Shown: positions 43,277 through 62,967, counted from the stretch's first letter. The stretch: DNA of 64,000 bases from Escherichia coli (GCF_003991155.1 NZ_CP031293.1); one strand, 5' to 3'. Numbers and translations: made by a program. Notes: generated by a model not told the origin, from the letters alone.

Positions 43277-43474
43277 TCCGCTTGCCATTTTCGAACAGCT
43301 GATTGGTTTAGTCCGGTGTTTCCCTGCTTGCACTTAAAAATGAGCGGATGGGAAACTCTCGAAATGGTTCGTCGATATGCTCACCTTTCAGTCAGGCATT
43401 TCACCGCGCACGCGAGCAAAATCAAAGGCACAAGAGGAGAACGTAGTTTACTGAAATGTGAGGTAACTTATTGA
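43277..43474 (+). pseudogene. possible C-terminal fragment of a tyrosine recombinase (integrase remnant)
   Basis: Frame translates ...GWETLEMVRRYAHLSVRHF..., resembling the catalytic-Tyr C-terminal motif (ERYAHL) of phage integrases; no N-terminal part present; ends 6 bp before the attR-like repeat. Confidence 0.3.
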
Positions 43475-43480
43475 TTTAAA

Positions 43481-43496
43481 TGGTGCGATAATAGGA
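43481..43496. repeat. attR-like imperfect direct repeat of the thrW 3' end (TGGTGCGATAATAGGA)
   Basis: Matches the tRNA 3' end at 63061-63077 (TGGTGCCGATAATAGGA) except for a 1-nt deletion; same orientation. Confidence 0.55.
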
Positions 43497-43557
43497 ACAA
43501 TACACATAGGCGATAAGCTTTGTTTTTGTTGCCTTTTTTATTGTTCATTTTTTATAG

Positions 43558-43580
43558 ATACCCCCAAAAGTACCCCCATA
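43558..43580. repeat. island-terminal 23-mer ATACCCCCAAAAGTACCCCCATA (putative arm-type integrase site)
   Basis: 22 of 23 identical to 62927-62949 at the other island end, same orientation. Confidence 0.5.
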
Positions 43581-43697
43581 TCTTTTTCCGCCCCTGAAAT
43601 TTGGTTGTTATTCATACAGCATATCAGGCGGTAACGCTCTCCCTTTAACCCACTTATTGTATGATAGTGCTATCCCACAATAAGGAATCAGCCAGCC

Positions 43698-44057
43698 ATG
43701 AGAATGACCAGTCGCAAAAAAGAGATACTTAGCTACTTTGAACCGGATAACCTCGAATGGGTGACTGGTGAGATTGGTGCGCCGCCGTTCGATGTGTCGG
43801 GTGTGGCCTACCTGCTTCATGGCATGGTGTCGTTCGATAAGCGTCACCAGCTCGAATCAACCCGGCGAACACTGGAAAGCATGGTTGCTGGTGGACTGCT
43901 TGAGCGGGTGACAGTGTATGAATCGCGCCAGATACGGCGCGGCGGTGATACTAACGCAACGGTCGTGCGCTACGGTTTACCCGGTCAGTGCGCTGTTATG
44001 CGCGATACTGGCGGCGCTGACAACGCAATATCAGGTGAATACATGCGGGTCAGTTAA
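43698..44057 (+). CDS. hypothetical protein (119 aa), first island gene at the attR side
   Basis: ORF with AAGGA SD; upstream inverted repeat CTTATTGT..ACAATAAG; 3' end overlaps the convergent gene by 8 bp. Confidence 0.5.
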   Translation: MRMTSRKKEILSYFEPDNLEWVTGEIGAPPFDVSGVAYLLHGMVSFDKRHQLESTRRTLESMVAGGLLERVTVYESRQIRRGGDTNATVVRYGLPGQCAVMRDTGGADNAISGEYMRVS

Positions 44058-44592
44058 TAGCCTGCAATCTGTCGTTGATGCGGCTCAGGTCGTAAACCCG
44101 GCGTTCAATATCCAGCATCAGGAAATTGTGGATCTCGGCCTGCTCAGGATTATCAGACTCTCTGGCCTGTAATAGCAATTCATTGTAACCATGCAAGCCG
44201 CCTGAGTTTTCCGCCGGGGTGGTGCCTTTCCCACGCAGGCAGCTAATGGGCTGATTACTCGTATCGTGTGTTTGCTTCTCCAGCACAATGACGCAATCCC
44301 ACCAGTCGCCAAAGTCATACGTGTAAACCAGCTTGTCACCCTCATTCTGGAGCGCCGCCCATAGTGGCGTGATTGCCGCGTTACCCATGCTTTCATCCTC
44401 ACCCCATACGCGATACTCGCTACCTGGATCACCTTTACGCCCTTTCTCGAACATATACAGGTGTTCGTCATTCCAGCCAAAAGCTAACTGGATCACGGCA
44501 TGAAGTTTACTAAAGGGGATTTGCTCTGGAACCAGCACACGCCGCCATATAGGTGGTTTGCTGTCTCGGATGGTTATCTTTAGCTGGTACAT
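44050..44592 (-). CDS. pRiA4b ORF-3-like family protein (180 aa)
   Basis: N-terminal motif YQLKITIRDSKPPIWRRVLVP as I recall for the PRiA4_ORF3 domain family; function unknown. Confidence 0.6.
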   Translation of the reverse strand: MYQLKITIRDSKPPIWRRVLVPEQIPFSKLHAVIQLAFGWNDEHLYMFEKGRKGDPGSEYRVWGEDESMGNAAITPLWAALQNEGDKLVYTYDFGDWWDCVIVLEKQTHDTSNQPISCLRGKGTTPAENSGGLHGYNELLLQARESDNPEQAEIHNFLMLDIERRVYDLSRINDRLQAIN

Positions 44593-44712
44593 GCAAATCC
44601 TGAATAAATGCGAATCGGAAGGATAACGATACTGACGTACTCACAATTCTGTAAAGGTGAATAAAGGAAATTTGCTTAATACGCATAAGTTACATGTGGA
44701 ATAATCCCATAT

Positions 44713-44898
44713 CTACCTGCGCGGCGCTGGCTTCTTCCACTGGTAGGCAGGTGCTCGCATCATTTCGCGGAACCTGTCGCGCCGGGCTATATCGGCATTA
44801 ACTGATCGTTCTATCTCCCGTTGATCTGCCTGTGTAAGCTGGTGGCCTCCGTGCTCAAGTTTGGCGATGGTCAATAAGGCTATTTCGCGTGGTGTCAT
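44713..44898 (-). CDS. hypothetical small protein (61 aa)
   Basis: ORF with AGAGGG SD-like sequence; no recognisable domain. Confidence 0.35.
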   Translation of the reverse strand: MTPREIALLTIAKLEHGGHQLTQADQREIERSVNADIARRDRFREMMRAPAYQWKKPAPRR

Positions 44899-45123
44899 AC
44901 GTCATACCCTCTGGAAGGATGAAACACGCCCGGATTAAATTTCATTTTTCGCGGGTATAAAAAAACGATGGGGCGGGCAGTCCCGGATAGTCAGGGCTGT
45001 AGAGATTTGACTACCCCCTCCCCACTGGATTCAGGTTACTGCTATTCCGTTAAGCGCTGCTTACGGGGATAGCTGCGTTGTGATTTTGACCATTCAGGTC
45101 GCCGCTATTTCCTCACCGATTGG

Positions 45124-45156
45124 GTGCTACGCGCGCGCGTACTTGTCCCGAAATAC
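45124..45156. repeat. copy 1 of repeat TGCTACGCGCGCGTACTTGTC..AAATA.CAG (contains palindrome ACGCGCGCGT)
   Basis: Near-identical to 46518-46550; related partial copies at 46755-46770 and 46807-46835. Confidence 0.6.
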
Positions 45157-45195
45157 CAGAAACCGCCAGCCAGAGGATGATTTCCCTCTGGTGGT

Positions 45196-45477
45196 CTACC
45201 TTTGCCTCTTGCCGCCATTTAACCGGAAGGCGTTACCGTTCGGTTGCGCTATCCCCATGCGGTGTTGCGTTTCGGTAACAGCTTTATGCAGGTCGCCAAA
45301 TTCCTCAACCTTCACGGGCGGGCGCTTCACGTTCTCCAGACACGTTTCACGGCGGCGCTTTATCCATTCCCGATCATCGTCCTCGGTGCATAACAGCATG
45401 ACTTCCATCCATCGTGCGGCAGCTCTCCGGTATAGCCCTTTTGACTCCAGCTCTTCAGCTTTCCTGTCCCTTATCAT
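45196..45477 (-). CDS. PerC-family transcriptional activator-like protein (93 aa)
   Basis: N-terminal motif MIRDRKAEELESKGLYRRAAARWMEVM resembles PerC/Pch family as I recall it; GAGG SD and TATAAT -10 upstream. Confidence 0.5.
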   Translation of the reverse strand: MIRDRKAEELESKGLYRRAAARWMEVMLLCTEDDDREWIKRRRETCLENVKRPPVKVEEFGDLHKAVTETQHRMGIAQPNGNAFRLNGGKRQR

Positions 45478-45513
45478 TTCTGCCTCTCAGATTATATAGA
45501 TAAGCAAAAAGGT

Positions 45514-45634
45514 GTTGGTTCAGTTGGTTCAGTTGGTTCAATTTGTAAAGATCGTTGTTTTTATTGTGTTTTTTCTGAAATGTTGAACCAACATCAACTC
45601 ATTTTGAACCAACACAGCCCAGCTCTGAACCAAC
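45514..45634. repeat. iteron module A: 3 tandem GTTGGTTCA, AT-rich spacer, 3 copies of the complementary TGAACCAAC
   Basis: Copies at 45514-22, 45523-31, 45532-40 and complementary copies at 45584-92, 45605-13, 45626-34. Confidence 0.7.
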
Positions 45635-45736
45635 AACACAGCGATAGCTTTGTGATTGGTCCGTTATTTTCTGGCTGATATTTGAGCGTATAACAGTGTT
45701 ATACAGTGGTATACTGTATGGATATTACTCACTGAT

Positions 45737-46192
45737 ATGGTCTTTGCAATGAGCAAATCTAATCTGATCGCGTTCCGCATCCCATCTGAATTGCAGGATG
45801 AGTTTAATCGGTCTGTTCTCGCTTCTGGAGGGGATAAAACCTCCTGGCTTGTTGATGCGATTCGCATGAAGCTGGGACAGCCGGAAAAGTCTATTGATTC
45901 ACGAATGCTTGGGCTGGTGGAGCGCATGGAAAAAGCCGCTGCGTCGCTTATTGCCGGAAAGCCGAACATCCCACCAAAGCCATATAACGAAACGGCAGTT
46001 ATAAAGATCATTGCCGATACCATCCAACAGGGATTTGATAATGGGCGTGTGATAGCTGAACGGATCAATGAAGCAGGCTATCAAACAAAAGCTGGTAAAG
46101 CGTGGGATAAAGATATTTACAGCGCGTGGAAGCGTCAGGGAAGCAATGCTGAAAAGTTAAAAGCGGTGATTGATTGTAAGGTCAGCGTATAA
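45737..46192 (+). CDS. putative ribbon-helix-helix (CopG/Arc-like) DNA-binding protein with extended C-terminus (151 aa)
   Basis: N-terminal IAFRIPSELQDEFNRSV...KTSWLVDAIRMKL resembles an RHH beta-strand plus helix; start may be the Met at 45749. Confidence 0.45.
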   Translation: MVFAMSKSNLIAFRIPSELQDEFNRSVLASGGDKTSWLVDAIRMKLGQPEKSIDSRMLGLVERMEKAAASLIAGKPNIPPKPYNETAVIKIIADTIQQGFDNGRVIAERINEAGYQTKAGKAWDKDIYSAWKRQGSNAEKLKAVIDCKVSV

Positions 46193-46271
46193 ACATGAGT
46201 GCCCATTGGAAAGCTGCTTGGGCCAATACCTTTATACACCAGCAGGTGGTGACGATAGGTGAGGATTAGGC

Positions 46272-46493
46272 ATGAAAGGCAGAACGCCACACATTGAACA
46301 TCAAGCCAACCACTTCTCGGATGTTCGCAATGAGATGATTGCCATTCGCGGTGATATGCACGGCTTGGAGCGTCGAATTATTGATAAGATTGATGAAAAT
46401 AGAGATAAGGCCAGTGAAAATCAAAAGTGGATCATCGGCCTGTTGATTTTATCAATTCTTATCCCGCTACTTATCGCATTGGTCACAAAATGA
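46272..46493 (+). CDS. small tail-anchored membrane protein (73 aa)
   Basis: GAGGA SD; charged coiled-coil-like N-terminus and single C-terminal TM helix (WIIGLLILSILIPLLIALV). Confidence 0.5.
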   Translation: MKGRTPHIEHQANHFSDVRNEMIAIRGDMHGLERRIIDKIDENRDKASENQKWIIGLLILSILIPLLIALVTK

Positions 46494-46517
46494 ATATCCA
46501 ATGTGTATGCTGTCGAT

Positions 46518-46550
46518 GCTACGCGCGCGTACTTGTCGCAAAATATCAGG
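46518..46550. repeat. copy 2 of the ACGCGCGCGT-ACTTGTC repeat
   Basis: TGCTACGCGCGCGTACTTGTCGCAAAATATCAG, near-identical to copy 1. Confidence 0.6.
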
Positions 46551-46754
46551 CAAAGGCCAGATTCAGAAATTCGTGATAACCACCAGCACAACATGAGAGG
46601 TCATGTAACGCGATTTATCACACCAGATACATGTGATTGGTGTACCCGCATAAAACATCGTCATAGCGCGTCCTGTGCGCATATACGCCGATAATCAACA
46701 CATCACCACCACTCTGTCTCATGTAGAGAACAGTTTTATGGTACTCCCCTCCAT

Positions 46755-46835
46755 CGTGCGCGTACTGGTCGGACGTAGTTGCAAAATTTTTTGCAACTGA
46801 TACCCCTCGCGCGCGTACTGGTCACGAAATTGGTG
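46755..46835. repeat. copies 3 and 4 (partial) of the GCGCGCGTACTGGTC repeat flanking palindrome GTTGCAAAATTTTTTGCAAC
   Basis: CGTGCGCGTACTGGTC at 46755-46770; CGCGCGCGTACTGGTCACGAAATTGGTG at 46807-46835; 20-bp perfect palindrome at 46777-46796. Confidence 0.5.
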
Positions 46836-47036
46836 TTTTGCTGTGGCAGTGATATCAGAAAAATCTTCCTGTTTCACATAAAGCGGATATGCGCGTAATG
46901 TAACGGCCCCATCAACTGGGAGCGGATTTGAGCCCGAATGTGTAGGCAATGTCACTTAACGTTTGTCGCATACCTTCCAGAAAAAGCGATTCATGAATAA
47001 TAGGGGCATGAATGCCCGGCGTACCGGGCTTATTAG

Positions 47037-47735
47037 TTAATTTGGTGCTTTAGGGTCAACATTAAAAGTTATATCACCTTCTGTATTTTTCCCGGCATAG
47101 CTAGCGGCTATTCTCGCCAACCCTTTGTAATCAGCAATTCCATCAGACTGTTGCGAGACGACTGAGCTACCAACTTTCCATAACATATTAATCTGCCGAT
47201 TATTGAGATAAGCCTTGGCATCAAACGACTGGAGTATCACCCCTGCGCCGTAGAACGTGTCCGTCACAGTTGTGTTATACGCGCCAGTAATTCCATAAGT
47301 AGGCGTATAAACTGTTGTTGCCGTTCCAGTGGTATTAGCTGTACCGTAGCCACCACCATAACTATTGAACGTGGTGTTCGAGTTTCCGTACGTTGTTGCT
47401 GAGCTCACACCAGTTTGCCCGTATATTGGGATGGTTACATTACGAGTATTTGAAATGGCCCCGCTTCTCAAAAAGTTCAAGAGAATTACCTGGTCAGCCA
47501 ATTTTTCATCTTTAACTTGTGTATATCCTTGGCTTGATAAACTGGCGGCTACTACCGTAGCTATTTGAGTGTATTCAATCTGTTTGGTGTTCCAAAGTTC
47601 TTGGCTTGCGGGGATGATCAAGAACTTCTTACCGACAGATTGCCCGGAAGATAAAGCATTGACCGTTACTAACGGTTTTTGTACGCATCCAGCCAATAAT
47701 GACAGGGATAATATTAAAAGAAGATTTTTAATCAT
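47037..47735 (-). CDS. lipoprotein (232 aa) with Gly/Thr/Tyr-rich central region
   Basis: Lipobox LLAGC in signal peptide MIKNLLLILSLSLLAGCVQ; low-complexity middle; tandem hairpins downstream of the stop. Confidence 0.7.
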   Translation of the reverse strand: MIKNLLLILSLSLLAGCVQKPLVTVNALSSGQSVGKKFLIIPASQELWNTKQIEYTQIATVVAASLSSQGYTQVKDEKLADQVILLNFLRSGAISNTRNVTIPIYGQTGVSSATTYGNSNTTFNSYGGGYGTANTTGTATTVYTPTYGITGAYNTTVTDTFYGAGVILQSFDAKAYLNNRQINMLWKVGSSVVSQQSDGIADYKGLARIAASYAGKNTEGDITFNVDPKAPN

Positions 47736-47885
47736 GATAATCTCACCTAAGAATTGCGTGGTTATAAATTATCATCACTGTAAGCGAATGTAAGCCACAG
47801 GCTCGTAATGTGATATGGAATTTTGATAGTTGGCTCAATATCAGTATGCCGTCCTTGGCTATTATGGTTTTGTTAGTTAGAGCGT

Positions 47886-50612
47886 CTATTCCCATTCGCT
47901 AACATCTTTCATGCCACTGAGGGTAGCTACAATCCCGGCCCTTGTCAGTTTCACGAATTCTTCAGCCCCAACGGCATCACGAATTGCTTTCATGGCAATT
48001 TTATTGGCCGAAAATCGTTTCTCTGCTGCGGCGATCGCTGCTGGTGATGCCCCTGCGCGCACTGCTTTTGTAGCTTCCTGAACGGCTTTCTCTATCGCAT
48101 ATCGACCACTTCTTGTCGCCCCAATCTTAGCCACAGCATTTCTTAGCGCGCCACCAGCAACCAAACCACTAATCGAACCAATTACACCACCGCCAAAGCC
48201 TCCAGCGATCGCACCTGACTGTTGAACTCCGTTCATAATCACGCCGACGATCTTTGGAAGGCCTGAATCGAGCGTTTTGAGAGCCTCAGTTGTTCTTCCC
48301 GTGCGCTCTACGTATCGCTGCGGTCTGGTACTGGCTTTAGCGAGTACACCGAACTCTTTCATCATTCTACCGAGATCTGGCGCATGACGACTGATGGCGT
48401 TTACATTCTGCTGGGTCATGAGCTTGGCAAAATACTGGATACCTGACTCTTCACCGATTCCTCCCTTCTCTCCCTGCGCCACAGCATGCTGAAGAATAGA
48501 TGCTATTGCAGGTTGGCGTTCTGCTTCCGGCAGCGCGGAGATAAGACGGTGAAAAGCTCCCGTTCCAGTGTTTGCGGATGCCTTAAGCGTATCGGCACCT
48601 TTTCTTACCATAGCGTCTGATGCGAGATCTCGACCAAAAACAGATTCGGCATTTTGTTTGGCGATAATGTAACTTTTAGAGAGATCGTTAGCTTTCTGCC
48701 ATTCTGTGAGGAAGTTTCCTTTTTCAGCCATGATGCGCATGTCATCAGTGATAGCTCTGCGCATTTCTCCGGCAATCCGGGCGGCATTGGCCTTACCTGC
48801 CCGGGTGTTTGCTTGTTCAGCATCAGCAAACTTAGCACGCCATGCCTTCATCCCGTCGAAGGTTATGCCGCCACCTTGGTTGTTGGCAGCCTGAAACTGT
48901 TTCATCTCCGGGCTGAGTGGAACATTGGCTGCTTTTTCTGCTTGGACGACAGCCATCCCATTACTCATTTTCATCCTTTCGCGTGGCATCGTGCTTCGCA
49001 GTTCTGCCCATGCCATATTCTCTGCTGTTTTCATATCACTGAGGCTCGCGATGATGCGCTCTTTAATTGCTGCGCTTTTTTCTGATGCGCTTCCAGACTC
49101 AGCACCGAAATCAGACAACTGCTTATTCAACTTTGAGGATATTTCATTGAAGGCCGTAAGGTGAGCATCCTGAACATTCCCAGGAGTTGATGCCAGAACA
49201 CCTTCTGCTTGGGCAATTCCACGACTACCTGAGCGCATTCCAGGCGTCAGGGTGTTGATATTAATACCAGTGATTTTCGCCGCCTTAGCGACATCATCTC
49301 TGACGTTTGATGCCTGCGATGCGATATGCTCTCGGCCTACGGCAGAACGCGCTGCTTTCGATACATCATTGGCGGTTTCCAGAGTATTTGCTGCCCCTAA
49401 CACATGGCCTGATTGATTTGTATTACTCCGCAATACATCTCGCATTACGTCACTGGCTGTCTGTCCGCTCTTTATTAAAGCGCGTGCTCCTAGCGATCCT
49501 GCTAGGCCAATACCTGTCTCTTTTGCTAGGTCTTCTGGGCTGATCTGCCCGTTCTTTTGGGCGTTCACCAATGTACCTGGCAGGTTTTCTGCCAACATAC
49601 TAGCCACCTTTGTGGCCGCACGTTCAGCACGTGGAGCGTTGGCAACTGAAGAAGCTGCGGTAGCTGCCTTTCCTGCACCTAATCCTGTAATAAGGTAAGG
49701 TGCTAGCTGCTCACCAGCCTGCGCGTATGGATCTGTAGGTTGGTCTACTGGGCGAAAGACAGGTGATATGGGCGTGTATGTGCCATCACCCACACCAAGC
49801 TTCTGAGCTGCCCATGCTCCGGCTGATTGCGCCGCATTGACTACCCCCACGCCTGCGTCCATTACATCAAACGGTATATTAGCAATCCCTCTGGCCATCT
49901 GCTCTGGCGCAGCTTTCAGTCCTGGCGAAAGATATTCCATCTCAGGATTAAGGTTAGACTTGGCTACTTGCTGCTGCGGTTCCCCGGCATTTTCATCGGC
50001 GAGAAACTGAGCTCTTTTCTGCTCCCATGAACTGGCTGTTGGTAGTCCTGCTTCTATGTTCTTAAATTGCTGACGTTTTGCTTCCCATGCAGAAATATCT
50101 CCCACCTGAGAGATTTCTTTATCAAGCTCTGAGTAGTCAGGCTGCTGAAGATTGCGATGTTGACTGGTTTGTGCAAACTGCAAGATTTCACTGTCATCAG
50201 GGATTATTCCGGCATCTGCAAATTTACTTACGTAATTAGCCGTTTCATCTGGCAGTGTAGATTTACCGTTTCTGACGGCATTAATACGAGCATAGCCAGA
50301 ATTATACCCAGCCAATGCCATACCTATATCACCAAATCGCTTCATTCCTTTATTGAGATGGTTTGCTGCGATATCCATTTGCTTTTCAAATGGCAGTGAG
50401 CGCGGATCTGTTCCACGATAACCAGCATCACTCATTACTGAGGGCATCAGTTGAGCAAATCCTCTAGCTCCTTTCGGTGACTCGGCACTTCCGTTACCAC
50501 TAGATTCATTGCCAACTAATGTTTCCATCGTCCCTGATGGGAAACCATATTTTTCATCGAGATGACGGGAATAGGCTTTCTGTTTTTCTGTCAGTTGTGC
50601 CATCATTGCCAT
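47886..50612 (-). CDS. large protein (908 aa) with N-terminal lytic transglycosylase (SLT) domain and long alpha-helical Ala/Lys-rich body
   Basis: SLT motifs near N-terminus (GNESSGN...ESPKGARGFAQLMP...ALAGYNSGYARI); start overlaps upstream gene stop. Confidence 0.8.
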   Translation of the reverse strand: MAMMAQLTEKQKAYSRHLDEKYGFPSGTMETLVGNESSGNGSAESPKGARGFAQLMPSVMSDAGYRGTDPRSLPFEKQMDIAANHLNKGMKRFGDIGMALAGYNSGYARINAVRNGKSTLPDETANYVSKFADAGIIPDDSEILQFAQTSQHRNLQQPDYSELDKEISQVGDISAWEAKRQQFKNIEAGLPTASSWEQKRAQFLADENAGEPQQQVAKSNLNPEMEYLSPGLKAAPEQMARGIANIPFDVMDAGVGVVNAAQSAGAWAAQKLGVGDGTYTPISPVFRPVDQPTDPYAQAGEQLAPYLITGLGAGKAATAASSVANAPRAERAATKVASMLAENLPGTLVNAQKNGQISPEDLAKETGIGLAGSLGARALIKSGQTASDVMRDVLRSNTNQSGHVLGAANTLETANDVSKAARSAVGREHIASQASNVRDDVAKAAKITGININTLTPGMRSGSRGIAQAEGVLASTPGNVQDAHLTAFNEISSKLNKQLSDFGAESGSASEKSAAIKERIIASLSDMKTAENMAWAELRSTMPRERMKMSNGMAVVQAEKAANVPLSPEMKQFQAANNQGGGITFDGMKAWRAKFADAEQANTRAGKANAARIAGEMRRAITDDMRIMAEKGNFLTEWQKANDLSKSYIIAKQNAESVFGRDLASDAMVRKGADTLKASANTGTGAFHRLISALPEAERQPAIASILQHAVAQGEKGGIGEESGIQYFAKLMTQQNVNAISRHAPDLGRMMKEFGVLAKASTRPQRYVERTGRTTEALKTLDSGLPKIVGVIMNGVQQSGAIAGGFGGGVIGSISGLVAGGALRNAVAKIGATRSGRYAIEKAVQEATKAVRAGASPAAIAAAEKRFSANKIAMKAIRDAVGAEEFVKLTRAGIVATLSGMKDVSEWE

Positions 50613-51922
50613 CCCTTAAGTTTTGCCTGATAGTAACTTTCCGGCAGATAGCCATGTGCGGTCACATAATCCTTAACCAGTGAAGGATCCTGCAACAGCA
50701 TTTTGGTATCAGTTTCTTCGTCCTTAGATTTGGTTACAGGAATACCGAGCCCGGCAATCTGTCGTTTCTGCATTCGAATAATTACGTCCTGCGCTTTATT
50801 CAACTCTCGCAAAAATGCCTCATTGCTGGTTGCTGACTTAATGCCATTTTGAGATTGCATAAGGGCAGCCCTTTCCCCTTCGGTTGGGTTAGAGCCAAAA
50901 GTCCCTTTGAGGCTAGGCAGAATAACCTTTAGGTTGTATTCATCAGCTTTGGCGCGTAGGCTTCGTGTGTCTTCTGCTACATCAGGAAGGAATCCAAACC
51001 CCAGCGTCAGGGGGTTATAGTTCTGCGAGCGGGTAACGGCCGAAGGATGTTTCCCTACAATTCCCGCCAGTTCATGACCCACTTCAAGCGCAGAGTTCAA
51101 GGAGTCGATGTTACCTACAACAGTATTAATTTTATCGTTCATCTTCTCCACTTTCGCCTGCTGTACCTTGCTCAGTTCAGCATTGAGCTTGTCTCTCTCG
51201 ATGTCATTTTGAGCACGTCCAAGTCGTGCTTTCAGAACCATTTCTCTCGTGCGTAGTTGGTTATCGGATAGGACTTTGAACTGCTCCATATCGAGACGTC
51301 GATTACCCTGTTCCGCATTAACCTGAGCATTATATGCGGATGTATCTGCGTTCTGCTGTGCAATGCTCTGCCCTTGCTGCTTCTCTTGAACACTAAAGTA
51401 ACTATTTGGATCAGCATGGAGGTGGATGAGGTCAGTGATTCTGTTGAATTCCTGTGGGTCATTCTGCCAAGACTGATAAACCTCTTCAGCAGGAAGACCA
51501 AATCGCTGTAATACTGGATTTGCCTGCTGAATGGCCTTCTGCATGGTCAGTGGATCTCCAGTTTGTGACGCAAGACGCAGATTCATGGCAGCGTCAGCGG
51601 TCTGTCGATTTTGCTCAGCATCAATGAATCCCATCTGTTTTTGAGAATCAGCCATAAACTGGGGATACTGGGCCATTAACTTCTGCACGCCAACACGATC
51701 ATTATTAGCTACCGCACTACCCAACCGTGCCTGATATTCTTTTAACTGCTGGGAAATTTGCGCCTGCTGATTAATCTCAGCAACGCCTCTTAGCCCCTGT
51801 AGCGCCATTAAACCTACGTTTGGCTGCTGCTGATACTGCACAGGCTGAGGAACGGAAGAACGAGGAGCATTATCATTTTGCGGTGCCATGCTAGGCAGCC
51901 CGCCAAGTTGCCATGTCGCCAT
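50603..51922 (-). CDS. Gln-rich coiled-coil protein (439 aa), co-transcribed with the SLT protein
   Basis: Long ORF, translationally coupled on both sides; Q/A/N-rich helical composition. Confidence 0.7.
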   Translation of the reverse strand: MATWQLGGLPSMAPQNDNAPRSSVPQPVQYQQQPNVGLMALQGLRGVAEINQQAQISQQLKEYQARLGSAVANNDRVGVQKLMAQYPQFMADSQKQMGFIDAEQNRQTADAAMNLRLASQTGDPLTMQKAIQQANPVLQRFGLPAEEVYQSWQNDPQEFNRITDLIHLHADPNSYFSVQEKQQGQSIAQQNADTSAYNAQVNAEQGNRRLDMEQFKVLSDNQLRTREMVLKARLGRAQNDIERDKLNAELSKVQQAKVEKMNDKINTVVGNIDSLNSALEVGHELAGIVGKHPSAVTRSQNYNPLTLGFGFLPDVAEDTRSLRAKADEYNLKVILPSLKGTFGSNPTEGERAALMQSQNGIKSATSNEAFLRELNKAQDVIIRMQKRQIAGLGIPVTKSKDEETDTKMLLQDPSLVKDYVTAHGYLPESYYQAKLKGWQ

Positions 51923-52599
51923 TAGAATCCAAGCCCCCCAACAAGACCAATAAGCCCACCACCAATAGCGCCGGCCGCAGTTCCTATTCCAGGAACAACG
52001 GAACCAAGTTGCGCACCCGCTAAAGCGCCTGATGCTGCCCCACCAATACCACGCGCAAGACTGGATGGCTGCTGCGCCTGACCTGCACGAATAGCGCCAA
52101 GCCCCTGCAAGAGTTGTCCGGTATTATTGGCGTAGTTTTGCCCTGCCGTTGCCTGCCCTGATGCCGCATTCATCCCGACATTTAGCAGGTTTCCATAATT
52201 TTGCATTTGCCCACTAAGCCAATTGTTATAAAGCATGGGCGCAATGGAAGATAACTGGTTACTGGTAGCTGTTGAGCCAAGCCCCCCGGTAGCTTCTGCT
52301 GAGACAAGGTTCTGATAACGGGCCTGATCTGCCTGTGTTTTATATAAACCAGAACCAAAGAAATCATTCGCGGCTTTATTCTGCCCTTCCAGAGTCATCA
52401 GTCCTTGCAGTTGTTGTAAAGCAGGCAATCCGACTTCTGCATACGGCTTGAGATTATTCATCACCGTATTCCACTGCTCGCGCTGCAAATCAATTGCCTG
52501 CTGCTGGGCCTTCGCCTGAGCTTTAGAGGCACCACCATCACCGCCTTTTTCGTATACGGCACGATTGAGATGTTTATGAGCTATATGGGTAATTAACAT
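51922..52599 (-). CDS. Gly-rich protein (225 aa) with C-terminal Gly/Ala hydrophobic tail
   Basis: C-terminus GIGGAASGALAGAQLGSVVPGIGTAAGAIGGGLIGLVGGLGF; coupled to neighbours. Confidence 0.65.
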   Translation of the reverse strand: MLITHIAHKHLNRAVYEKGGDGGASKAQAKAQQQAIDLQREQWNTVMNNLKPYAEVGLPALQQLQGLMTLEGQNKAANDFFGSGLYKTQADQARYQNLVSAEATGGLGSTATSNQLSSIAPMLYNNWLSGQMQNYGNLLNVGMNAASGQATAGQNYANNTGQLLQGLGAIRAGQAQQPSSLARGIGGAASGALAGAQLGSVVPGIGTAAGAIGGGLIGLVGGLGF

Positions 52600-53054
52600 T
52601 CGCTGAATTCCTTATATTGTTGCCGAGTTAACTGATAAAGCGTTACGCCGACGGGTTTACCACATCTGATATAAGCATCATCAAGGTGACCAACACGGGT
52701 AGCGCCAAGCAAACGGATAATTGCCCGTCCATATTTTGTGGTGTCAGGAACCATAGTGATGCTGTTAAGGAATGGTGAGTTTTCGAGAAGCCATTTGCAG
52801 AATAATCGATGCCCTTGCAGTGCATATTCACCACGGAATCCGGGGTCGTACACCGCATGGCATTCAACAACGCTATGCCAGAAGTTACGCACTTCATGAA
52901 CGCCAGCCAGCACTAATCCTTCGTAGATGCCGAGATATACCGCATCAGGCTTGATGTAGTACGTGTGCCCCGGCTCAACAATATTTTCGGTATTGCCTGG
53001 CTCGTTAAGAAAGGCCTGTAATCGCACAGGGTTATCAATAAATTTTAGTTCCAT
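52593..53054 (-). CDS. hypothetical protein (153 aa), first large gene of the SLT operon
   Basis: ORF overlapping the downstream gene start; no recognised motif. Confidence 0.6.
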   Translation of the reverse strand: MELKFIDNPVRLQAFLNEPGNTENIVEPGHTYYIKPDAVYLGIYEGLVLAGVHEVRNFWHSVVECHAVYDPGFRGEYALQGHRLFCKWLLENSPFLNSITMVPDTTKYGRAIIRLLGATRVGHLDDAYIRCGKPVGVTLYQLTRQQYKEFSEC

Positions 53055-53070
53055 GCGATGCCATCCATTT

Positions 53071-53232
53071 TCACATACAGCCTGCCAGCGCCTTATCTAT
53101 TAACCCTCGTGCAATTTCATGCAGAGTTGGCGCTACTCCAATTCCTGATTTTTTACGCTGCTCTTCCTGAATTTTCTTTATCGCTTCCATTTGCTTCTCA
53201 CTTATCAATACCGGCTTTACTGAAATAGCCAT
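53071..53232 (-). CDS. small putative DNA-binding protein (53 aa, possibly ribbon-helix-helix)
   Basis: ORF 53071-53361; start placed at MAISVKPVL with GGGGG SD 4-5 nt upstream; LexA-like box just upstream. Confidence 0.45.
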   Translation of the reverse strand: MAISVKPVLISEKQMEAIKKIQEEQRKKSGIGVAPTLHEIARGLIDKALAGCM

Positions 53233-53248
53233 AACGCCCCCCTTAGAA

Positions 53249-53264
53249 CTGTATAAAACAACAG
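53249..53264. promoter_or_regulatory. candidate LexA (SOS) box CTGTATAAAACAACAG
   Basis: CTGT-N8-ACAG with AT-rich centre; about 17 bp upstream of the 53-aa gene start; nearby TATAAT-like hexamer on the minus strand. Confidence 0.5.
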
Positions 53265-53681
53265 TTATTATAGTTTCACAAATCGCAATATTCATCATCG
53301 TAATTGCAAAATATGAAACAAATAGCACAAAAAAATGCCACCGCTCAGTAGCTGGTGGCATCGTTCTGTGTGTCAGGTTTTGACAGGTTTTTTATGGACT
53401 CTAAAAACTATATTTATGGTATCGCATTACTCTTCACGGCAGGTGCTTTTCAGTTCTGCCCTTGCTTCTGGCTCCATTGGTAATTTGATTCGCGATCAGC
53501 TATGCGGATGGTTTGCTGAACAGGCATAACAACTTCTCAGAGGCTGTTTTTTGAACTACGAAAATTTCGTAGTGCTCACTTTCAAAAACGTCACGCCCTT
53601 GTACACAGGATTTTACGAAAGTCTCGTAAAACACTCTCTGATGCCAGCCAGGTGTTGTGCGCATCAATTCAGTCACATTGT

Positions 53682-53792
53682 GTCGGTTCAAAATACCGTG
53701 TTGTTGGTTCAGTGTTGGTTCAATAAAAAGAATAAAATCCTTATAAAACAATACACTTTACAAATTGAACCAACTGAACCAACTGAACCAAC
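53682..53792. repeat. iteron module B: inverted, diverged copy of module A
   Basis: GTCGGTTCA 53682-90, GTTGGTTCA 53704-12 and 53714-22, then tandem TGAACCAAC at 53766-74, 53775-83, 53784-92; spacer begins with reverse complement of the module A spacer (ATTTGTAAAG). Confidence 0.7.
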
Positions 53793-53817
53793 ACCTTTTC
53801 TACGCACATGAAGAAGC

Positions 53818-56577
53818 TCATTCTTCAGATGAGTTATAATCTCCTGGCTGGTAATTGAGTACATAAACGTTTATTTGTCGTCCCTGAATACGTGGTGATT
53901 TTCTTTGGTATCCACGACCGCTGTTTGGTGGGGTTAGCATCCCGGCTTTTTTCAACACTTCAGCAAACTGTTTTGCGTTGAAACCACATGCGATCTCCTT
54001 TTCAAATGTGGCCGGGAATGTGTAGAAAATCATTGGGCTTTCGTCATGTTCTCCACGCTGACGGTATCCGGCTAAATCTTTGATGGGCAAATCTGCCGGG
54101 CTGTATGGAAATGGTGCAAAACGGCTAAGCCCATAGGCATTAAGAAATGCCTCCGTTTGTTCAATAATCTGCTGATGCTCTTTGTTACCTGTGCCGAACT
54201 CGCGCAACCATGCGTTATAGCTGTGCTGTATCGCATCACGGCATGTCTGAGCATCCCAGCCTGTTACAACCTCGCCTAACAACAATGCGGCCTCCAGAAT
54301 GGCAAATCGCGCGGCTACACGGTGAACCTGCTCACCATAATCGGATGGGATCAGGCTTCTCCATCTGCTTTCGCAATCACGAACGGTTTTAATAGCCTGT
54401 TGCTGGTGGTGTGCCAGCCATTTAATCCACTCACGCCCGGACGCGCCGTGGTGATGCTGGTAAGCGTCTTTCAGTGCGTCTGCGTGCTGTTTTCCGTTCT
54501 GGTAATCGTGAAAGCGTACTGCTTTACTCAACGGAATATTCAGCAGTCGCACCAGTTGCCCGGCTTTGGTTTTTCGCCCGGAAGTAGCGATAAATGTTTC
54601 TAAATCCATTTCTCCGGTGCTGATTGCCACTGTACGCCAGCGTTTTAGATCCCGGTTTCCACCATCTTTAGCGCCTTGCAGTTTCCCTACACCGTTAAAT
54701 AACGCATAGGCAGACTGTGAAACGCTGACAGGATCAGCGCCCTGACCAACTTCATCAAGCGGCATTAGTCCGTCATTGTGGGCGGCGGCCTCATTTGCCA
54801 GCCCCAGCGCGGTTCCGTACCACGTCAGCCGCAGTAAATCAGGGTTGCCGTATAAGCTGCTCGCCACGTTTGCCGTGGTGGTCTTACCTGCGCTCGACTG
54901 CTCATAGAAATGAATGCCGAACCCGTCAGCGCCCACCAGCCCAATCAATGGCGCTGCCAGTGCTGCGCCGATCCCGGTCATCATTGAATAGTTACCAAAG
55001 GCCAGACGCGCCACGTTATCACGCCAGCTTTTCGCGCTCCCTGAGACGGTATATCCGGCTGCGGCTGAGCTTCTCCCGCTGAACAGCACAGGATTTTCAG
55101 GTGTTCCGATGATTTCCCCATCAGGCATGATGTACGCTCCGCATTGCCAGCCAGTGGCATGAGCAACACGCCACAATTCACGAGAGCCACTGCGTTGTAG
55201 CCAGTCTGCCAGTATTGCTCTGAGGCTGCTTTTGGTCGTGACATTTACCCCACCAGCTTTAAGTGTGCGCCATCCTTCACGTTCACCAATATCAGCCAGT
55301 GGAATGGCAGCGGTTGTCGGCGTTTCAGAACCAAACGACAGCCAGCGAAGAATGAGATACTGGTCTTTATCGTCTCTGCCAGTACCGATAACGCTTAACG
55401 GAGAACATAACCAGCTTTCGTTATTGATGATTTCTCCACTCTGGCTGTCAGCTCTCGGAGATACCCAATAAATACCATCCTCGCGGCTTTCTATTCTTGG
55501 TTTCAGTGGGTCGGTATCCATAACCTTAAAATCGCTTCCCTCAATGGTCTGTGGCTCCTGTTTCACGCCATTACCCTGTGGTTGGTACATTGACTTATTG
55601 AACGCTTCTGTGGCGCATTTAATGCCGTGTTTTTGGTGGTAATCATTCCAGTCTGCTTTGTGATCTGTCGGGGGTAATGCCACCCATCCAGAAACAGATA
55701 AAGCTGCTTTTTCTGCTGCTATTCTCCCCGTGTTTTGTCTTCCTTCGCTGTGGTCGTTATCCGCAGCAATGATGATTTGTGCTGAAGGAAATTTATCCCG
55801 CAGTACCTGGGCGACATATAACAGGTTCCCGGCATCAATCGCCGCCACTGTCAGCGCCTCTGGACGAATTAAATGGGCAGATAATGCCGTTGCCAGACCT
55901 TCTGCGATTAAGATGCTCTGTGTTGTTTCTGGTGCGTTTATGGCGTGATATGCCCCCCGCTTTGCTGAACCTGTCAGGAGTCTTTTTTCACCATGTGAGG
56001 TAATAGTCTGTGCTGCTGTGACTGCGCCGGATTTATCCACCAGCGCCAGCAACAGAGATCCATCGGGCAACACGGGGAATGTAAAATCACCTACCCCTTT
56101 CGCAACCAGATAATCAGATTTGCCGTTTACAGCCTTTCTGCGCATGTCATCAAACTGACGGGAAAACGTATCCCGTCTTTGTTGTTCGTCCTTCTCTGCC
56201 CTTTTCAGGCGCTCCTGTTCGCGTCGCTGGCGCTCGGTTTCCAGTTGTTCCCGTTTCTGGCTGGTGGCTTCTGGTGTTTCCGTTGTCCGGTAATCAATAC
56301 CCAGAACATCAGCGGCAAGAAGCGCCGCCTCTGTTGTGTCGCAGTTATTTACGCGTTTAATTAAATCCAGCCCATCACCAGCGCCGCACTGATTACAGAT
56401 GAAGCTACCGCGCCCGTTGTCATCGAACCGGAATCGATCTTTGCCCCCACATGCAGGGCAGGGAGCATGACGGCGCGGAGAGTCAGGGACATTTATGTTC
56501 AGGCAGCCCAGCACATGAGGCCAGTTGTTTTCAGACGCACTGATAACCTGACGGATAAGATCAATGTTTCGCATCAC
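53818..56577 (-). CDS. primase-helicase (P4 alpha-like): N-terminal zinc-ribbon primase plus C-terminal P-loop helicase/NTPase
   Basis: 919 aa; zinc ribbon CPACGGKDRFRFDD...CNQCGAGDG; Walker A YEQSSAGKTTT. Confidence 0.85.
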   Translation of the reverse strand: MMRNIDLIRQVISASENNWPHVLGCLNINVPDSPRRHAPCPACGGKDRFRFDDNGRGSFICNQCGAGDGLDLIKRVNNCDTTEAALLAADVLGIDYRTTETPEATSQKREQLETERQRREQERLKRAEKDEQQRRDTFSRQFDDMRRKAVNGKSDYLVAKGVGDFTFPVLPDGSLLLALVDKSGAVTAAQTITSHGEKRLLTGSAKRGAYHAINAPETTQSILIAEGLATALSAHLIRPEALTVAAIDAGNLLYVAQVLRDKFPSAQIIIAADNDHSEGRQNTGRIAAEKAALSVSGWVALPPTDHKADWNDYHQKHGIKCATEAFNKSMYQPQGNGVKQEPQTIEGSDFKVMDTDPLKPRIESREDGIYWVSPRADSQSGEIINNESWLCSPLSVIGTGRDDKDQYLILRWLSFGSETPTTAAIPLADIGEREGWRTLKAGGVNVTTKSSLRAILADWLQRSGSRELWRVAHATGWQCGAYIMPDGEIIGTPENPVLFSGRSSAAAGYTVSGSAKSWRDNVARLAFGNYSMMTGIGAALAAPLIGLVGADGFGIHFYEQSSAGKTTTANVASSLYGNPDLLRLTWYGTALGLANEAAAHNDGLMPLDEVGQGADPVSVSQSAYALFNGVGKLQGAKDGGNRDLKRWRTVAISTGEMDLETFIATSGRKTKAGQLVRLLNIPLSKAVRFHDYQNGKQHADALKDAYQHHHGASGREWIKWLAHHQQQAIKTVRDCESRWRSLIPSDYGEQVHRVAARFAILEAALLLGEVVTGWDAQTCRDAIQHSYNAWLREFGTGNKEHQQIIEQTEAFLNAYGLSRFAPFPYSPADLPIKDLAGYRQRGEHDESPMIFYTFPATFEKEIACGFNAKQFAEVLKKAGMLTPPNSGRGYQRKSPRIQGRQINVYVLNYQPGDYNSSEE

Positions 56578-56932
56578 CGTACCCCACGTGGTCTATAGCG
56601 TTTGCGATATGGCTAACCAGCATCTGCCACTTGGTTATTCCGTAATCAGTCAGCATGCCATCATTGTTTAGCCACATATCAAATTCAGCGGTTGTCGCAA
56701 GTTTCCACTTATCGCCGTGGACAGTCCTCATTGCTGGGTACATGAATGCGCAAATCAGATCACAAACATCTGACGGCTTCAGAGATGTAGTAATGGTGCG
56801 TCCCTCTGGCGTCTGAATTGCCATTTTCTCTTCACCAGTAGAATGAAGGTTATGAATCCACACAGCACCAGCAATCTTTGCCACCTGCTCTCCGATTGCG
56901 GAGCTAAGCGCCATTTCTGCATTTTCACGCAT
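56561..56932 (-). CDS. hypothetical protein (123 aa), overlaps primase start
   Basis: ORF in coupled chain; 3' end overlaps primase start by 17 nt. Confidence 0.55.
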   Translation of the reverse strand: MRENAEMALSSAIGEQVAKIAGAVWIHNLHSTGEEKMAIQTPEGRTITTSLKPSDVCDLICAFMYPAMRTVHGDKWKLATTAEFDMWLNNDGMLTDYGITKWQMLVSHIANAIDHVGYGDAKH

Positions 56933-57266
56933 GAGAACCTCCCGCTACAGTTGCGCCCATGTCATTAACCATGCTTTGCCATATCTCACGCCCGACGTCA
57001 GTCAATCCGTCCTTAGTGACGCAACGTTCAAGAAGCTCGATCCCCACGGTTTCCCACTGCGGGTAGAACACTTTCATGGCTGCCAGTGTGTAGCTATCGA
57101 TCAGGCTGCGAACGCCTTTTACTCCATTGACGATTTCCACACGGACGGCCTCGCCGTCCGCATCAACCATGAAATAGTCCCCGCCGCTGGTGGAGGTAAT
57201 GTGGTTATACAGTGCCGACGCATACTTATTTGCCAGCGCATTCAGTCGGAAATTTTTAGTAATCAT
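56925..57266 (-). CDS. hypothetical protein (113 aa)
   Basis: ORF in coupled chain; 8-nt overlap with downstream gene. Confidence 0.55.
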   Translation of the reverse strand: MITKNFRLNALANKYASALYNHITSTSGGDYFMVDADGEAVRVEIVNGVKGVRSLIDSYTLAAMKVFYPQWETVGIELLERCVTKDGLTDVGREIWQSMVNDMGATVAGGSHA

Positions 57267-57276
57267 GGCTCCATCC

Positions 57277-57879
57277 TCAGTGCGTCACTGGTTCCGCTGG
57301 CATGCCGTTTTCATTCAGTTCAGCTATAAAGCTGTTGTGAAGTTCAGCAAGCGTTTCACGCCCAAATGGAGTCAGTGCTCCTTGTTCCACATCCATCATG
57401 GCTCTGTAGAAAATAATGGCGCGTTCTGTGCCAGACTCGATGCCAAAACGTTCTATCATCGCGCCCTCAATGTTGTTTGCCATAGCGAGGCGCTCTGCTA
57501 CTGGATACAGCGGCATGGCGACGATGCCGTTGGAATAAACAGCCACTTCGGAAGGATTGCCAGTATCATCAATGATGCTGACAGTGCCGTTTTCCTCTCT
57601 CATTTCCAGCATGAATACTGTTGCGATCAGCCATCTCCACATAATGACGTTATGCTGTGATGTGTAATCGAAATATCCCTGGTTACCGCCATCGGCAATA
57701 GCGAGATGTATTGACATACCTTCATCTGGTTTATCGTCATAATCCCCGGCATCCAGACGATTTACGGCATCAATATATGAGATGGCCTCAACGCGTTCTG
57801 TCATGCCATCGTTGCTGCGGTACATGATGTTTACGCCGTCAGGCGTTGCTTCTGCATGGAAAGTTAAGAAATTATTCAT
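57277..57879 (-). CDS. hypothetical protein (200 aa)
   Basis: ORF 57277-57984; start placed at MNNFLTFHAEA where ATG overlaps upstream stop (CATGAATAA). Confidence 0.55.
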   Translation of the reverse strand: MNNFLTFHAEATPDGVNIMYRSNDGMTERVEAISYIDAVNRLDAGDYDDKPDEGMSIHLAIADGGNQGYFDYTSQHNVIMWRWLIATVFMLEMREENGTVSIIDDTGNPSEVAVYSNGIVAMPLYPVAERLAMANNIEGAMIERFGIESGTERAIIFYRAMMDVEQGALTPFGRETLAELHNSFIAELNENGMPAEPVTH

Positions 57880-58093
57880 GTTTCGCCTCGCCTGAATGAT
57901 TCTGTAACTCATATTTGCCCAACAATTCGTCCGCTTCCTGAATAGCTTCTGGTACGCCATTGAGCAGTGACATAACCGCGCCAATCATTAACTTGTCTCT
58001 GTTGCTGGGGCTGGCCCCTTCAAGCCAGAACCCTAAAACAGTCTGAACCTGTTCGATGCGACATTGCGCTTCAATGAGCTGGATGTTGGTCAT
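57872..58093 (-). CDS. hypothetical small protein (73 aa)
   Basis: Start overlaps upstream stop (ATGA). Confidence 0.5.
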   Translation of the reverse strand: MTNIQLIEAQCRIEQVQTVLGFWLEGASPSNRDKLMIGAVMSLLNGVPEAIQEADELLGKYELQNHSGEAKHE

Positions 58094-58353
58094 TTCGCAC
58101 TCTCCACATCGATTAAACCGATATCTATCAGGGAGGTAACTTTTTGTAGCCAGCTATTGATTACTGTCGCCTGTTCCCCTCCCACCGAGGGAACAATCTC
58201 ATTCATCACATGAACCAGACCTGTGCGCGCTCTGGTAAGCCGTTCAGTCGCGCAATCTGCGGGAGTGAATGTGTCTGGATATGGCTCTTCACGCCCCAGC
58301 AATGATTCAATTTCCAGCTCACACGGATGACGATAAATTAAGTTGATATTCAT
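58090..58353 (-). CDS. hypothetical small protein (87 aa)
   Basis: Start overlaps upstream stop (ATGA). Confidence 0.5.
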   Translation of the reverse strand: MNINLIYRHPCELEIESLLGREEPYPDTFTPADCATERLTRARTGLVHVMNEIVPSVGGEQATVINSWLQKVTSLIDIGLIDVESAK

Positions 58354-58544
58354 TTTTCACCCCCAAGAATTACCAGCTCGGCACGGGCATCGTTAACCAA
58401 AGATGAGCACGCTTTAATCGCATCCACGACATCAGCAGCGTCCATTTCTTCAGCCGAAAGACTGACAGCAACCAGGACAGCCGCTGCTTGCTCGATTAAT
58501 TGAAGTGCGGACGTAAGTCGAGGGGCATTAATTGAGTTATTCAT
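58350..58544 (-). CDS. hypothetical small acidic protein (64 aa)
   Basis: ORF 58350-58601; start placed at [10 protein letters not shown] with G-rich SD; overlaps upstream stop by 8 nt. Confidence 0.5.
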   Translation of the reverse strand: MNNSINAPRLTSALQLIEQAAAVLVAVSLSAEEMDAADVVDAIKACSSLVNDARAELVILGGEK

Positions 58545-60606: not shown

Positions 60607-60618
60607 TTTCAGTCTCCG

Positions 60619-62895: not shown

Positions 62896-62926
62896 TTGGG
62901 GGTACCTCCACTAAACCGAACAGCAA

Positions 62927-62949: not shown

Positions 62950-62967
62950 TGACCGTAGATTTTGAGG

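Follow-up and report, generated by a model that had tools for sequence, protein, structure and literature searches.

A P22-type ejection-protein operon under probable LexA control in a capsid-less phage satellite of Escherichia coli

Phage satellites are thought to steal whole virions from their helpers, altering capsid size or packaging specificity only. Why, then, would a satellite that has no capsid, portal, terminase or tail genes carry an operon for the ejection proteins of a short-tailed phage? The question is raised by a stretch of 64,000 nucleotides from Escherichia coli (GCF_003991155.1, NZ_CP031293.1), hereafter called the window, in which an island of 19.6 kb holds five genes on the minus strand between 47,886 and 53,264. 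Our answer, to which we would give a probability of about 0.55, is that these genes form the virion-protein module of a phage-inducible chromosomal island (PICI) of the EcCIMP1 type that parasitises P22-like podoviruses, and that, in hijacked particles, the injection channel is replaced by one made from the island's own set. A recent exception to the theft of complete virions is the Vibrio PICI-like element (PLE), which replaces the tape-measure protein of its helper (PMC11838301).

The island itself and its dependence on a helper are already published. EcCIMP1 is a PICI of E. coli MP1 that is mobilised by the phage vB_EcoP_Kapi1, or Kapi1 (Pick, Stadel & Raivio, ISME J 2025; PMC11773190), and the island of the window is near-identical to it, with 44 differences over the 5.2 kb of ejection genes. 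EcCIMP1 excises only when the P22-like Kapi1 is present, requires alpA and int to do so, and is transduced by Kapi1 at low frequency; it was described as having "no phage-like structural genes", and the ejection genes were left as vague "DNA transfer/packaging candidates" (PMC11773190). The original prediction, made from the sequence of the window, had guessed at a satellite with ejection proteins of its own or at a different envelope-breaching function, and had called either unusual. The island is indeed a capsid-less phage satellite, but one already known as a variant of EcCIMP1 (PMC11773190).

A P22 gene 14-7-20-16 module and its relatives

The five open reading frames (ORFs) that had been predicted are all present where they had been placed, on the minus strand from 53232 to 47886:

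53071-53232, minus strand: 53-aa leader ("p53"), island-specific, with an extended N-terminus and two helices
52593-53054, minus strand: 153-aa P22 gp14-like protein (DUF2824); phrog_651 at 1e-66, 84% identity to Kapi1_055
51922-52599, minus strand: 225-aa P22 gp7-like ejection protein with Gly-rich hydrophobic C-terminus; phrog_598 at 3e-70
50603-51922, minus strand: 439-aa P22 gp20-like ejection protein (Inj_translocase family); phrog_917 at 1e-44, phrog_2534 at 1e-42
47886-50612, minus strand: 908-aa protein, a soluble lytic transglycosylase (SLT) domain (residues 17-119) fused to a P22 gp16-like part (about 189-864); phrog_770 at 5e-121

Translational coupling had been proposed for all five genes. 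It holds for the last four, which overlap by 1-10 nt, but the first gene lies 16 nt from the second. What had been noticed in the single proteins holds: the N-terminal SLT domain of the 908-aa protein is PF01464 (residues 17-119, E=3.8e-12) and has its motifs ES (E36), GFAQLM and AGYNSG intact, the 225-aa protein ends in a Gly-rich hydrophobic tail, and the Gln content of the 439-aa protein is 11.6%. Moreover, the guess that the operon encodes internal virion proteins of a podovirus is borne out by PHROG matches to P22 families. The layout that had been suggested for it, that of T7 gp13-16, is not, since the family is that of P22 genes 14-7-20-16. With PHROG profiles, phrog_770 (gp16, DNA transfer protein) covers residues 189-864 of the 908-aa protein, and phrog_342 (T7-type internal virion protein) matches residues 9-217 and nothing further. 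The SLT domain alone matches T7-like internal virion proteins, which rules out a T7-type assignment of the operon. Nor do the proteins fall into a tape-measure or conjugation family, as a competing assignment would have it: no tape-measure PHROG is among the matches of the four proteins and none appears in NCBIfam, which gave no family-level match for any protein of the operon. A PDB sequence search with the gp7-, gp20- and gp16-like proteins returned no matches. In relatives that are 73-84% identical, precomputed Pfam annotation names DUF2824 (PF11039), P22_gp7 (PF25688), Inj_translocase (PF16928) and SLT together with Phage_P22_gp16 (PF26808). The four genes are contiguous on one strand in the P22 order 14-7-20-16. 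Judged by profile matches and gene order, the operon is a complete P22 14-7-20-16 module, composed of an assembly factor and three ejection proteins, with the SLT domain fused to gp16.

The fusion is found in phages as well. The Escherichia phages Dewey and Huey (PQ850600/PQ850609) carry an SLT::gp16 that is 47% identical over 97% of the protein, and a Serratia P22-like prophage (L090, 4449-6923) has one that is 44% identical. An SLT-bearing P22-type gp16 in genuine phages and prophages contradicts a 2022 review, according to which the gp16 of P22-like phages has no transglycosylase. As to the leader, no Pfam, PHROG or NCBIfam match was obtained for it. Its AlphaFold2 (AF2) model (pLDDT 85) consists of an extended N-terminus and two helices. 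A ribbon-helix-helix fold was considered for it and is unsupported: Pfam was empty, Foldseek gave none, the PDB profile search yielded noise only, and hhalign against an Arc/Mnt/CopG/NikR/ParD alignment returned a probability of 1.5%.

No capsid, portal, terminase or tail gene was found in the island by RefSeq annotation or by PHROG scans of its ORFs, as had been claimed, and by the same means neither lysis genes nor P4-like psu, delta or sid were seen. The annotation of the window was taken from strain STEC383 (NZ_CP091026.1), in which the 5.5-kb operon region is 100% identical.

Apart from gp14, the module is unlike the set of the helper at the level of sequence. By BLASTP, gp14 is 84% identical to that of Kapi1 and 23% to that of P22, and gp7 58% and 56%, respectively; gp20 is 26% identical to Kapi1 and 28% to P22 (N-terminal part), and gp16 is 25% identical to Kapi1, its match to P22 being short and local (46% over 76 aa). 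The best sequenced phages reach only 47-52% identity in gp16. Full-length matches in 5426 E. coli genomes numbered 71, of which the top 15 and others that were sampled had island-type annotation, and one match of 83% coverage that was examined is a deletion derivative of the island. In IMG/VR, ten of ten gp20 relatives are islands, with a primase or DUF5906 replicase and a 53-aa gene upstream and without coat, portal or terminase genes. No phage with the same alleles was found in INPHARED, among the examined E. coli matches or in IMG/VR; by sequence, the closest relatives of the module in the collections searched are all in islands.

It is also maintained there. Against the MP1 copy, 32 synonymous and 12 non-synonymous changes were counted (pN/pS 0.11). 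Against three islands at 78-87% amino acid identity, pN is 0.07-0.13 and pS 0.59-0.87 (saturated), and the ORFs are all intact. A dN/dS below 0.1 against these three diverged islands, together with the intact ORFs, shows strong purifying selection, by which the module is kept up within satellites. At the same time, the E. coli islands hold at least four gp20/gp16 types, mutually about 20-30% identical, with the same leader gene and promoter. Other sets in E. coli islands are 14-7-20-16 without the SLT domain, or gp20 and gp16 alone. The leader/promoter region was found in 502 of the 5426 E. coli genomes.

The promoter and the slot behind the leader gene

Upstream of the leader gene lie the following elements:

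53337-53359, minus strand: intrinsic terminator hairpin GCCACCAGCTACTGAGCGGTGGC with T-run; position kept in L072, L075-L077, L080 and L087
53303-53319 and, inverted, 53273-53291, minus strand: two copies of the motif TTTCA-N5/6-TGCAA, the proximal copy abutting the -10
53267-53272, minus strand: -10 hexamer TATAAT, perfect; kept in most sister loci
53247-53266: predicted LexA box AACTGTTGTTTTATACAGTT (20-mer), over the expected transcription start; from matrix score and conservation

Toward the first gene, the order is terminator, two motif copies, TATAAT, abutting LexA box and, 2 nt on, a strong Shine-Dalgarno sequence. The terminator insulates the ejection operon from transcription of the primase gene. 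The CTGT-N8-ACAG box to which the original prediction drew attention occurs once in the window, at 53249-53264; as a bare pattern it is non-significant, because 0.55 occurrences are expected by chance and at least one was present in 40 of 100 shuffles. The 20-mer AACTGTTGTTTTATACAGTT is the best of the window, scoring 19.9 bits on a matrix assembled from 26 known LexA sites of E. coli, with a median of 20.3 for true sites and a maximum of 16.8 in 50 shuffles. It has the operator form CTG-N10-CAG with an AT-rich spacer, and its score is within the range of known sites. The box is identical among the E. coli variants of the island and kept in every ejection-type island examined, with a changed spacer in L075-L077 and L087 (CTGTATCGTTATACAG) and in Lelliottia L049 (TGCTGTATGTTTAATCAGTA). 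A site of at least 14.9 bits stands at the same position in 11 of 25 species-level sister loci, one of these having the half-sites CTGG/CCAG rather than CTGT/ACAG, yet the CTG-N10-CAG core. Score, position and conservation among the ejection-type islands make it probable that the operon is under LexA (SOS) control. The second-best LexA-like site of the window, CTCTGTATACTTGTCCAGTT (61658-61677, 14.5 bits), lies between int and alpA; it was dismissed as a LexA site, its score being within the range of the shuffles and alpA being reported as not SOS-induced.

Loci of this family have TATAAT-like -10 boxes, no -35 consensus and two TTTCA-N5/6-TGCAA copies of which the proximal one touches the -10. 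The promoter is probably activator-dependent, because a -35 consensus is lacking and two conserved repeats are in its place. From its sequence and position, the motif pair is probably the site of an activator or repressor, which may be AlpA, the 53-aa protein or a helper factor; LexA would then be the second of two locks on the promoter. A generic sigma-70 scan missed the operon promoter, giving no call because the -35 is poor, and we relied instead on the conserved TATAAT and the architecture across loci. The motif pair was seen in nearly all promoters of the family (L009-L060, L072, L075-L077, L087), and paired GATC-containing repeats lie further upstream in many loci.

A primase-based scan with one genome per species gave 64 loci, about 54 of them from Enterobacterales, and the leader gene is present in 25 of the Enterobacterales loci. 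The genes that follow it there are:

7 loci: a 108-aa protein and a tape-measure protein of 857-1188 aa
2 loci: a tape-measure protein without the 108-aa partner
1 locus: a 109-aa partner and a tape-measure fragment
7 loci: SLT-bearing "lytic tail" or "tail injection transglycosylase" proteins (L017, L021, L023, L029, L030, L039, L041)
1 locus: a baseplate hub (L016, 15380-16420)
2 loci: a P22-type ejection set (Escherichia sp., Lelliottia)
5 loci: unassigned

The tape-measure proteins (L009, L013, L015, L018, L020, L024, L025, L032, L040) are seen in sister islands only, not among the proteins of the window. The Chimaeribacter island has int, primase, leader, 108-aa gene and tape-measure gene, with no other structural gene. 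That of Klebsiella michiganensis (L009) encodes in addition a 115-aa ORF (13472-13819) that resembles a portal fragment, its match to the portal family being confined to the C-terminal part (phrog_68, 3e-51), and a tail-completion/Neck1-like protein of 123 aa (21279-21650). Klebsiella, Pantoea, Erwinia, Lonsdalea, Chimaeribacter, Cedecea, Rosenbergiella and Pectobacterium are among the genera whose islands have tape-measure genes, or other genes for tail or DNA-injection proteins, behind the leader. The 108-aa partner was considered as a tail assembly chaperone; it has no Pfam match and the label is positional only. In the Serratia prophage with a related SLT::gp16 block there is no leader gene.

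The varied content behind the same leader suggests that the slot gathers proteins of DNA delivery or of the tail lumen, in keeping with different types of helper. Perhaps, and this we offer as a tentative generalisation, a widespread lineage of enterobacterial PICIs keeps, behind the conserved leader gene, a mostly LexA-gated "conduit slot" that recruits DNA-delivery proteins of the helper's type (from P22 ejection proteins to a siphovirus tape-measure protein with its partner, SLT-bearing injection proteins or a baseplate hub), the chimeric particles entering through a satellite channel and bypassing SieA-like exclusion; in the window the slot would possibly be paired with the island's own TraT-like lipoprotein. 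Literature searches found no paper on satellite-encoded podovirus ejection proteins beyond the brief remark on EcCIMP1, and in the literature searched the operon is not identified as a complete, selected, helper-divergent P22 set, nor is a LexA-gated promoter or a family-wide tape-measure slot reported. A December 2025 preprint knows of tape-measure genes in satellites from one other proposal only, and in satellites of the PICI type such genes appear undescribed.

What the operon may do for the island

If the operon supplies virion proteins to hijacked particles, events could run as follows. In the resting island, LexA over the transcription start would shut the promoter, and an activator would probably be needed as well. 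DNA damage would induce the helper prophage, and cleavage of LexA would open the operon in time for procapsid assembly. The ejection proteins of the island would then be loaded into helper procapsids by the route of P22, in which ejection proteins enter by binding of their N-terminal parts and incorporation depends on the scaffolding protein and not on the portal (PMC8402733). Particles that package island DNA would build a satellite-encoded conduit across the envelope of the next cell. The likeliest benefit would be DNA entry independent of the gp20/gp16 type of the helper, and satellite particles could pass blocks directed at a type, be it SieA-like exclusion in helper lysogens or the TraT-like lipoprotein of the island. 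Work on P22 hybrids has established that highly diverged ejection sets swapped into P22 (whole sets of Sf6, L, HK620 and CUS-3) are incorporated and functional, that gp16 and gp20 must be cognate, and that SieA exclusion targets gp20/gp16 with an effect that varies with their type (PMC10461980).

The lipoprotein gene follows that of gp16 after 150 nt:

47037-47735, minus strand: 232-aa outer-membrane lipoprotein with lipobox LLAGC; DUF4136/TraT/PelC-like fold with a long beta-hairpin

By family the protein is DUF4136-like, and in its AF2 model (pLDDT 83) an alpha/beta domain is accompanied by a beta-hairpin of about 40 residues. In other islands the lipoprotein is also 3' of SLT::gp16, at about 88% identity, and a homologue with 62% identity (L090, 7001-7699) lies between gene 16 and arc/tailspike of the Serratia P22-like prophage, which is the position of sieA in P22. 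From its modelled fold and its position, the lipoprotein is a candidate entry-exclusion factor; it may explain the superinfection immunity against Kapi1 that EcCIMP1 adds in lysogens, no known defence system having been found in EcCIMP1 (PMC11773190).

Several points weigh against a virion-protein module of this kind. EcCIMP1 is transduced by Kapi1 at a very low level, about 5e3 per ml, and a Kapi1-like prophage is present in only 2 of 21 carrier strains, so that Kapi1 may not be the natural helper; moreover, it took the helper to elicit a response of alpA, mitomycin C alone giving none, a result obtained on alpA (PMC11773190). The LexA score depends on a matrix put together ad hoc from 26 sites. 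Nine of the 25 sister loci have a LexA-like site that falls 1 bp short and three have none, and SOS control thus does not extend to the whole family. The 53-aa leader was left without an assigned function by the Pfam, Foldseek and hhalign searches. Finally, the incorporation of island proteins into particles and the benefit of evading exclusion are both steps that we infer.

Other explanations must be weighed against the same observations. The island proteins might spoil helper virions through a mixture of non-cognate gp16 and gp20, cutting the spread of the helper and protecting the host population. Such proteins do fail together in P22 hybrids (PMC10461980), gp20 and gp16 of the island are only about 25% identical to those of Kapi1, and interference with helpers is common in satellites, Tai and the Rta of PLE being examples. 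Yet the Kapi1 titre after induction is unchanged by EcCIMP1 (PMC11773190), and a poison would not require four intact genes at dN/dS below 0.1, including an SLT domain that is catalytically intact by its motifs. Although this alternative survives best, we consider it unlikely.

Quite unlikely, in our view, is an action of the proteins in the carrier cell itself, for example as SOS-induced decoys against incoming P22-like phages or in breaching the envelope at lysis. The EcCIMP1-dependent superinfection immunity mentioned above would fit this explanation, as would an operon promoter of its own, independent of late transcription in the helper. However, ejection proteins lack signal peptides, and the virion is normally their only route to the envelope. 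For exclusion, the TraT-like lipoprotein encoded next to them is the better candidate. Immunity, moreover, was measured in unstressed lysogens, where an operon repressed by LexA would be silent.

We are equally doubtful that the ejection proteins serve to complement helpers, allowing the use of defective or heterologous P22-like prophages. The parallel would be alpA_1 of EcCIMP1, which replaces Xis of Kapi1 by complementing a xis mutant (PMC11773190), and most carrier strains are without a Kapi1-like prophage. Against this, a prophage that lacks ejection genes but keeps capsid, terminase and tail would offer a narrow niche, and neither the tape-measure genes in the sister slots nor the diversity of types would be explained. 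That the module is an inert remnant, a segment that recombination took from a P22-like prophage and that has no current function, is very improbable and largely refuted: the Serratia P22-like prophage does share the SLT::gp16-lipoprotein block, and decayed copies occur (frameshifts in E686, disruption by an insertion sequence in TW10690, a deletion in PK8276), but in diverged islands the ORFs are intact and dN/dS is below 0.1 although synonymous sites are saturated, different genera have kept the slot, and none of the dedicated terminator, promoter, LexA box and leader gene is found in phages.

If the operon is indeed a virion-protein module, the swapping of conduits by satellites would extend to short-tailed phages and to the PICI class, which would make it a general satellite strategy. 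It would also give a function to the unexplained "packaging module" of EcCIMP1 and link the spread of satellites to the SOS response. With E. coli genetics and a known helper, the system would be a tractable one for asking what ejection-protein diversity is for, and whether it decides which lysogens particles enter; entry specificity in turn bears on the horizontal transfer of island-borne regulators and defence genes. The reach of the question is considerable, with the leader and promoter in about 9% of complete E. coli genomes and the slot across many Enterobacterales.

The island and known systems

The island extends from about 43479 to 63077 at a tRNA-Thr gene and is flanked by a repeat of 18/19 bp. 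Its other features are:

63059-63077: attL core repeat AATGGTGCCGATAATAGGA, placed at the tRNA-Thr 3' end (gene at 63061-63136, minus strand)
62927-62948, second copy 43558-43579: repeat ATACCCCCATAAGTACCCCCAT near both island ends
61681-62895, minus strand: tyrosine integrase
61050-61253, minus strand: AlpA-type helix-turn-helix regulator/excisionase; phrog_66 at 3e-11, phrog_2790 at 5e-11; master activator in EcCIMP1
58996-59083 and 59146-59223, minus strand: C4 antisense RNA (79.5 bits) and isrK small RNA (60.5 bits); Rfam, both above gathering scores
53818-56577, minus strand: TOPRIM/DUF927 primase-helicase (island replicase); phrog_1139 at 2.4e-178
45196-45477, minus strand: PerC-family regulator, cargo, homologue of EcCIMP1_025
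43479-43496: attR core repeat AATGGTGC-GATAATAGGA, far end of the island

The attL repeat AATGGTGCCGATAATAGGA contains GATAATAGGA, to which the att core of EcCIMP1, TCCTATTATC, is reverse-complementary, and the ATACCCCCATAAGTACCCCCAT repeats are probable arm-type sites of the integrase. The gene order is int, alpA, antirepressor, icd-like gene, TOPRIM/DUF927 primase, operon, lipoprotein, PerC and pRiA4b-ORF3 protein. Features of Gram-negative PICIs are present, namely an integrase at the att site, alpA adjoining int, an own primase, a size of about 10-20 kb and direct repeats. PICIs are also defined by having no structural or lysis genes, and here there are four virion-related ones, gp14 and the three ejection proteins. 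Features like those of P4 and P1 are C4 RNA, the icd-like gene and ash; by its Rfam matches, C4/isrK is an RNA immunity module of the P1/P4 type, and the PICI that carries it has AlpA as master regulator. The two RNAs lie within a stretch annotated as an "ash family pseudogene", adjoining the icd-like gene.

Just outside attR (43340-43400) is the C-terminal remnant of a tyrosine recombinase (…SGWETLEMVRRYAHLS), and the neighbouring LysR-type gene is truncated. The remnant was probably left by an element that occupied thrW, the CP4-6 site of K-12, at an earlier time. Two places in STEC383 (NZ_CP091026.1) match the leader/promoter region, so a second island of the same family may be present in that strain. 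The island, at 19.6 kb, has almost exactly half the length of Kapi1's genome (39.4 kb). As a concatemer dimer it would thus roughly fill one P22-like T=7 headful without redirection of capsid size, and no gene for size redirection was found in the island. A mimic of the pac site was also looked for and no candidate emerged, the DNA likeness between island and Kapi1 being limited to gp14/gp7, with 81% over 596 bp, and to part of the integrase gene over a short length.

The closest system is EcCIMP1 of MP1, with which the island of the window shares the tRNA-Thr site between proA and yagU, the att core, the order from int to pRiA4b-ORF3 and the five-gene operon with the lipoprotein; MP1 has in addition an adjacent vat/MarR island and a second alpA gene, alpA_1, whereas the island of the window is without both. 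With P22 it has in common the four families of 14-7-20-16 in the same order and the Gly-rich C-terminus of gp7. In P22, however, the module is part of the late operon and follows the tail-needle gene, whereas in the island it follows the primase gene behind a terminator, promoter, LexA box and leader of its own, and P22 gp16 is without the SLT domain that the gp16 of the island has at its N-terminus. The lipoprotein recalls P22 SieA in its position and F-plasmid TraT, PelC and DUF4136 in its predicted fold. T7 gp14-gp15-gp16 resemble the island proteins in job, size gradient and an SLT start with catalytic Glu (E36 in the island, E37 in T7 gp16), with no sequence relationship beyond the SLT domain. 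Tai systems were considered as a further link and found to be unrelated.

For the control of the operon, the nearest parallel is operon I of the SaPIs (pathogenicity islands of Staphylococcus aureus), a LexA-repressed morphogenesis and packaging operon (Ubeda et al. 2007, as cited in PMC6092414). Going by that citation, both are virion-related operons with an SOS promoter separate from the master regulator, LexA control being predicted in the case of the island; SaPIs carry capsid-size and terminase functions, whereas the island carries ejection proteins.

For the proposed function it is the PLE of Vibrio cholerae. PLE satellites place their own tape-measure protein in ICP1-derived virions and need it for transfer; as in the island, a DNA-delivery component of the helper has a satellite copy, about 20% identical in PLE and accompanied by a chaperone-like partner (PMC11838301). 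The PLE cluster consists of tape-measure protein, tail-assembly chaperone and baseplate hub, and sister islands hold a tape-measure protein, the 108-aa partner or a hub in their slot. Unlike in PLE, the helper of the island is a podovirus and the proteins are internal ejection proteins rather than tail-lumen ones, and the two satellite families are unrelated. Incorporation and the requirement for transfer were demonstrated for PLE, whereas for the island they are read from its genes. By analogy, a pairing of the ejection set with an exclusion lipoprotein may follow the logic of PLE11, in which Rta stands beside a resistant tape-measure protein.

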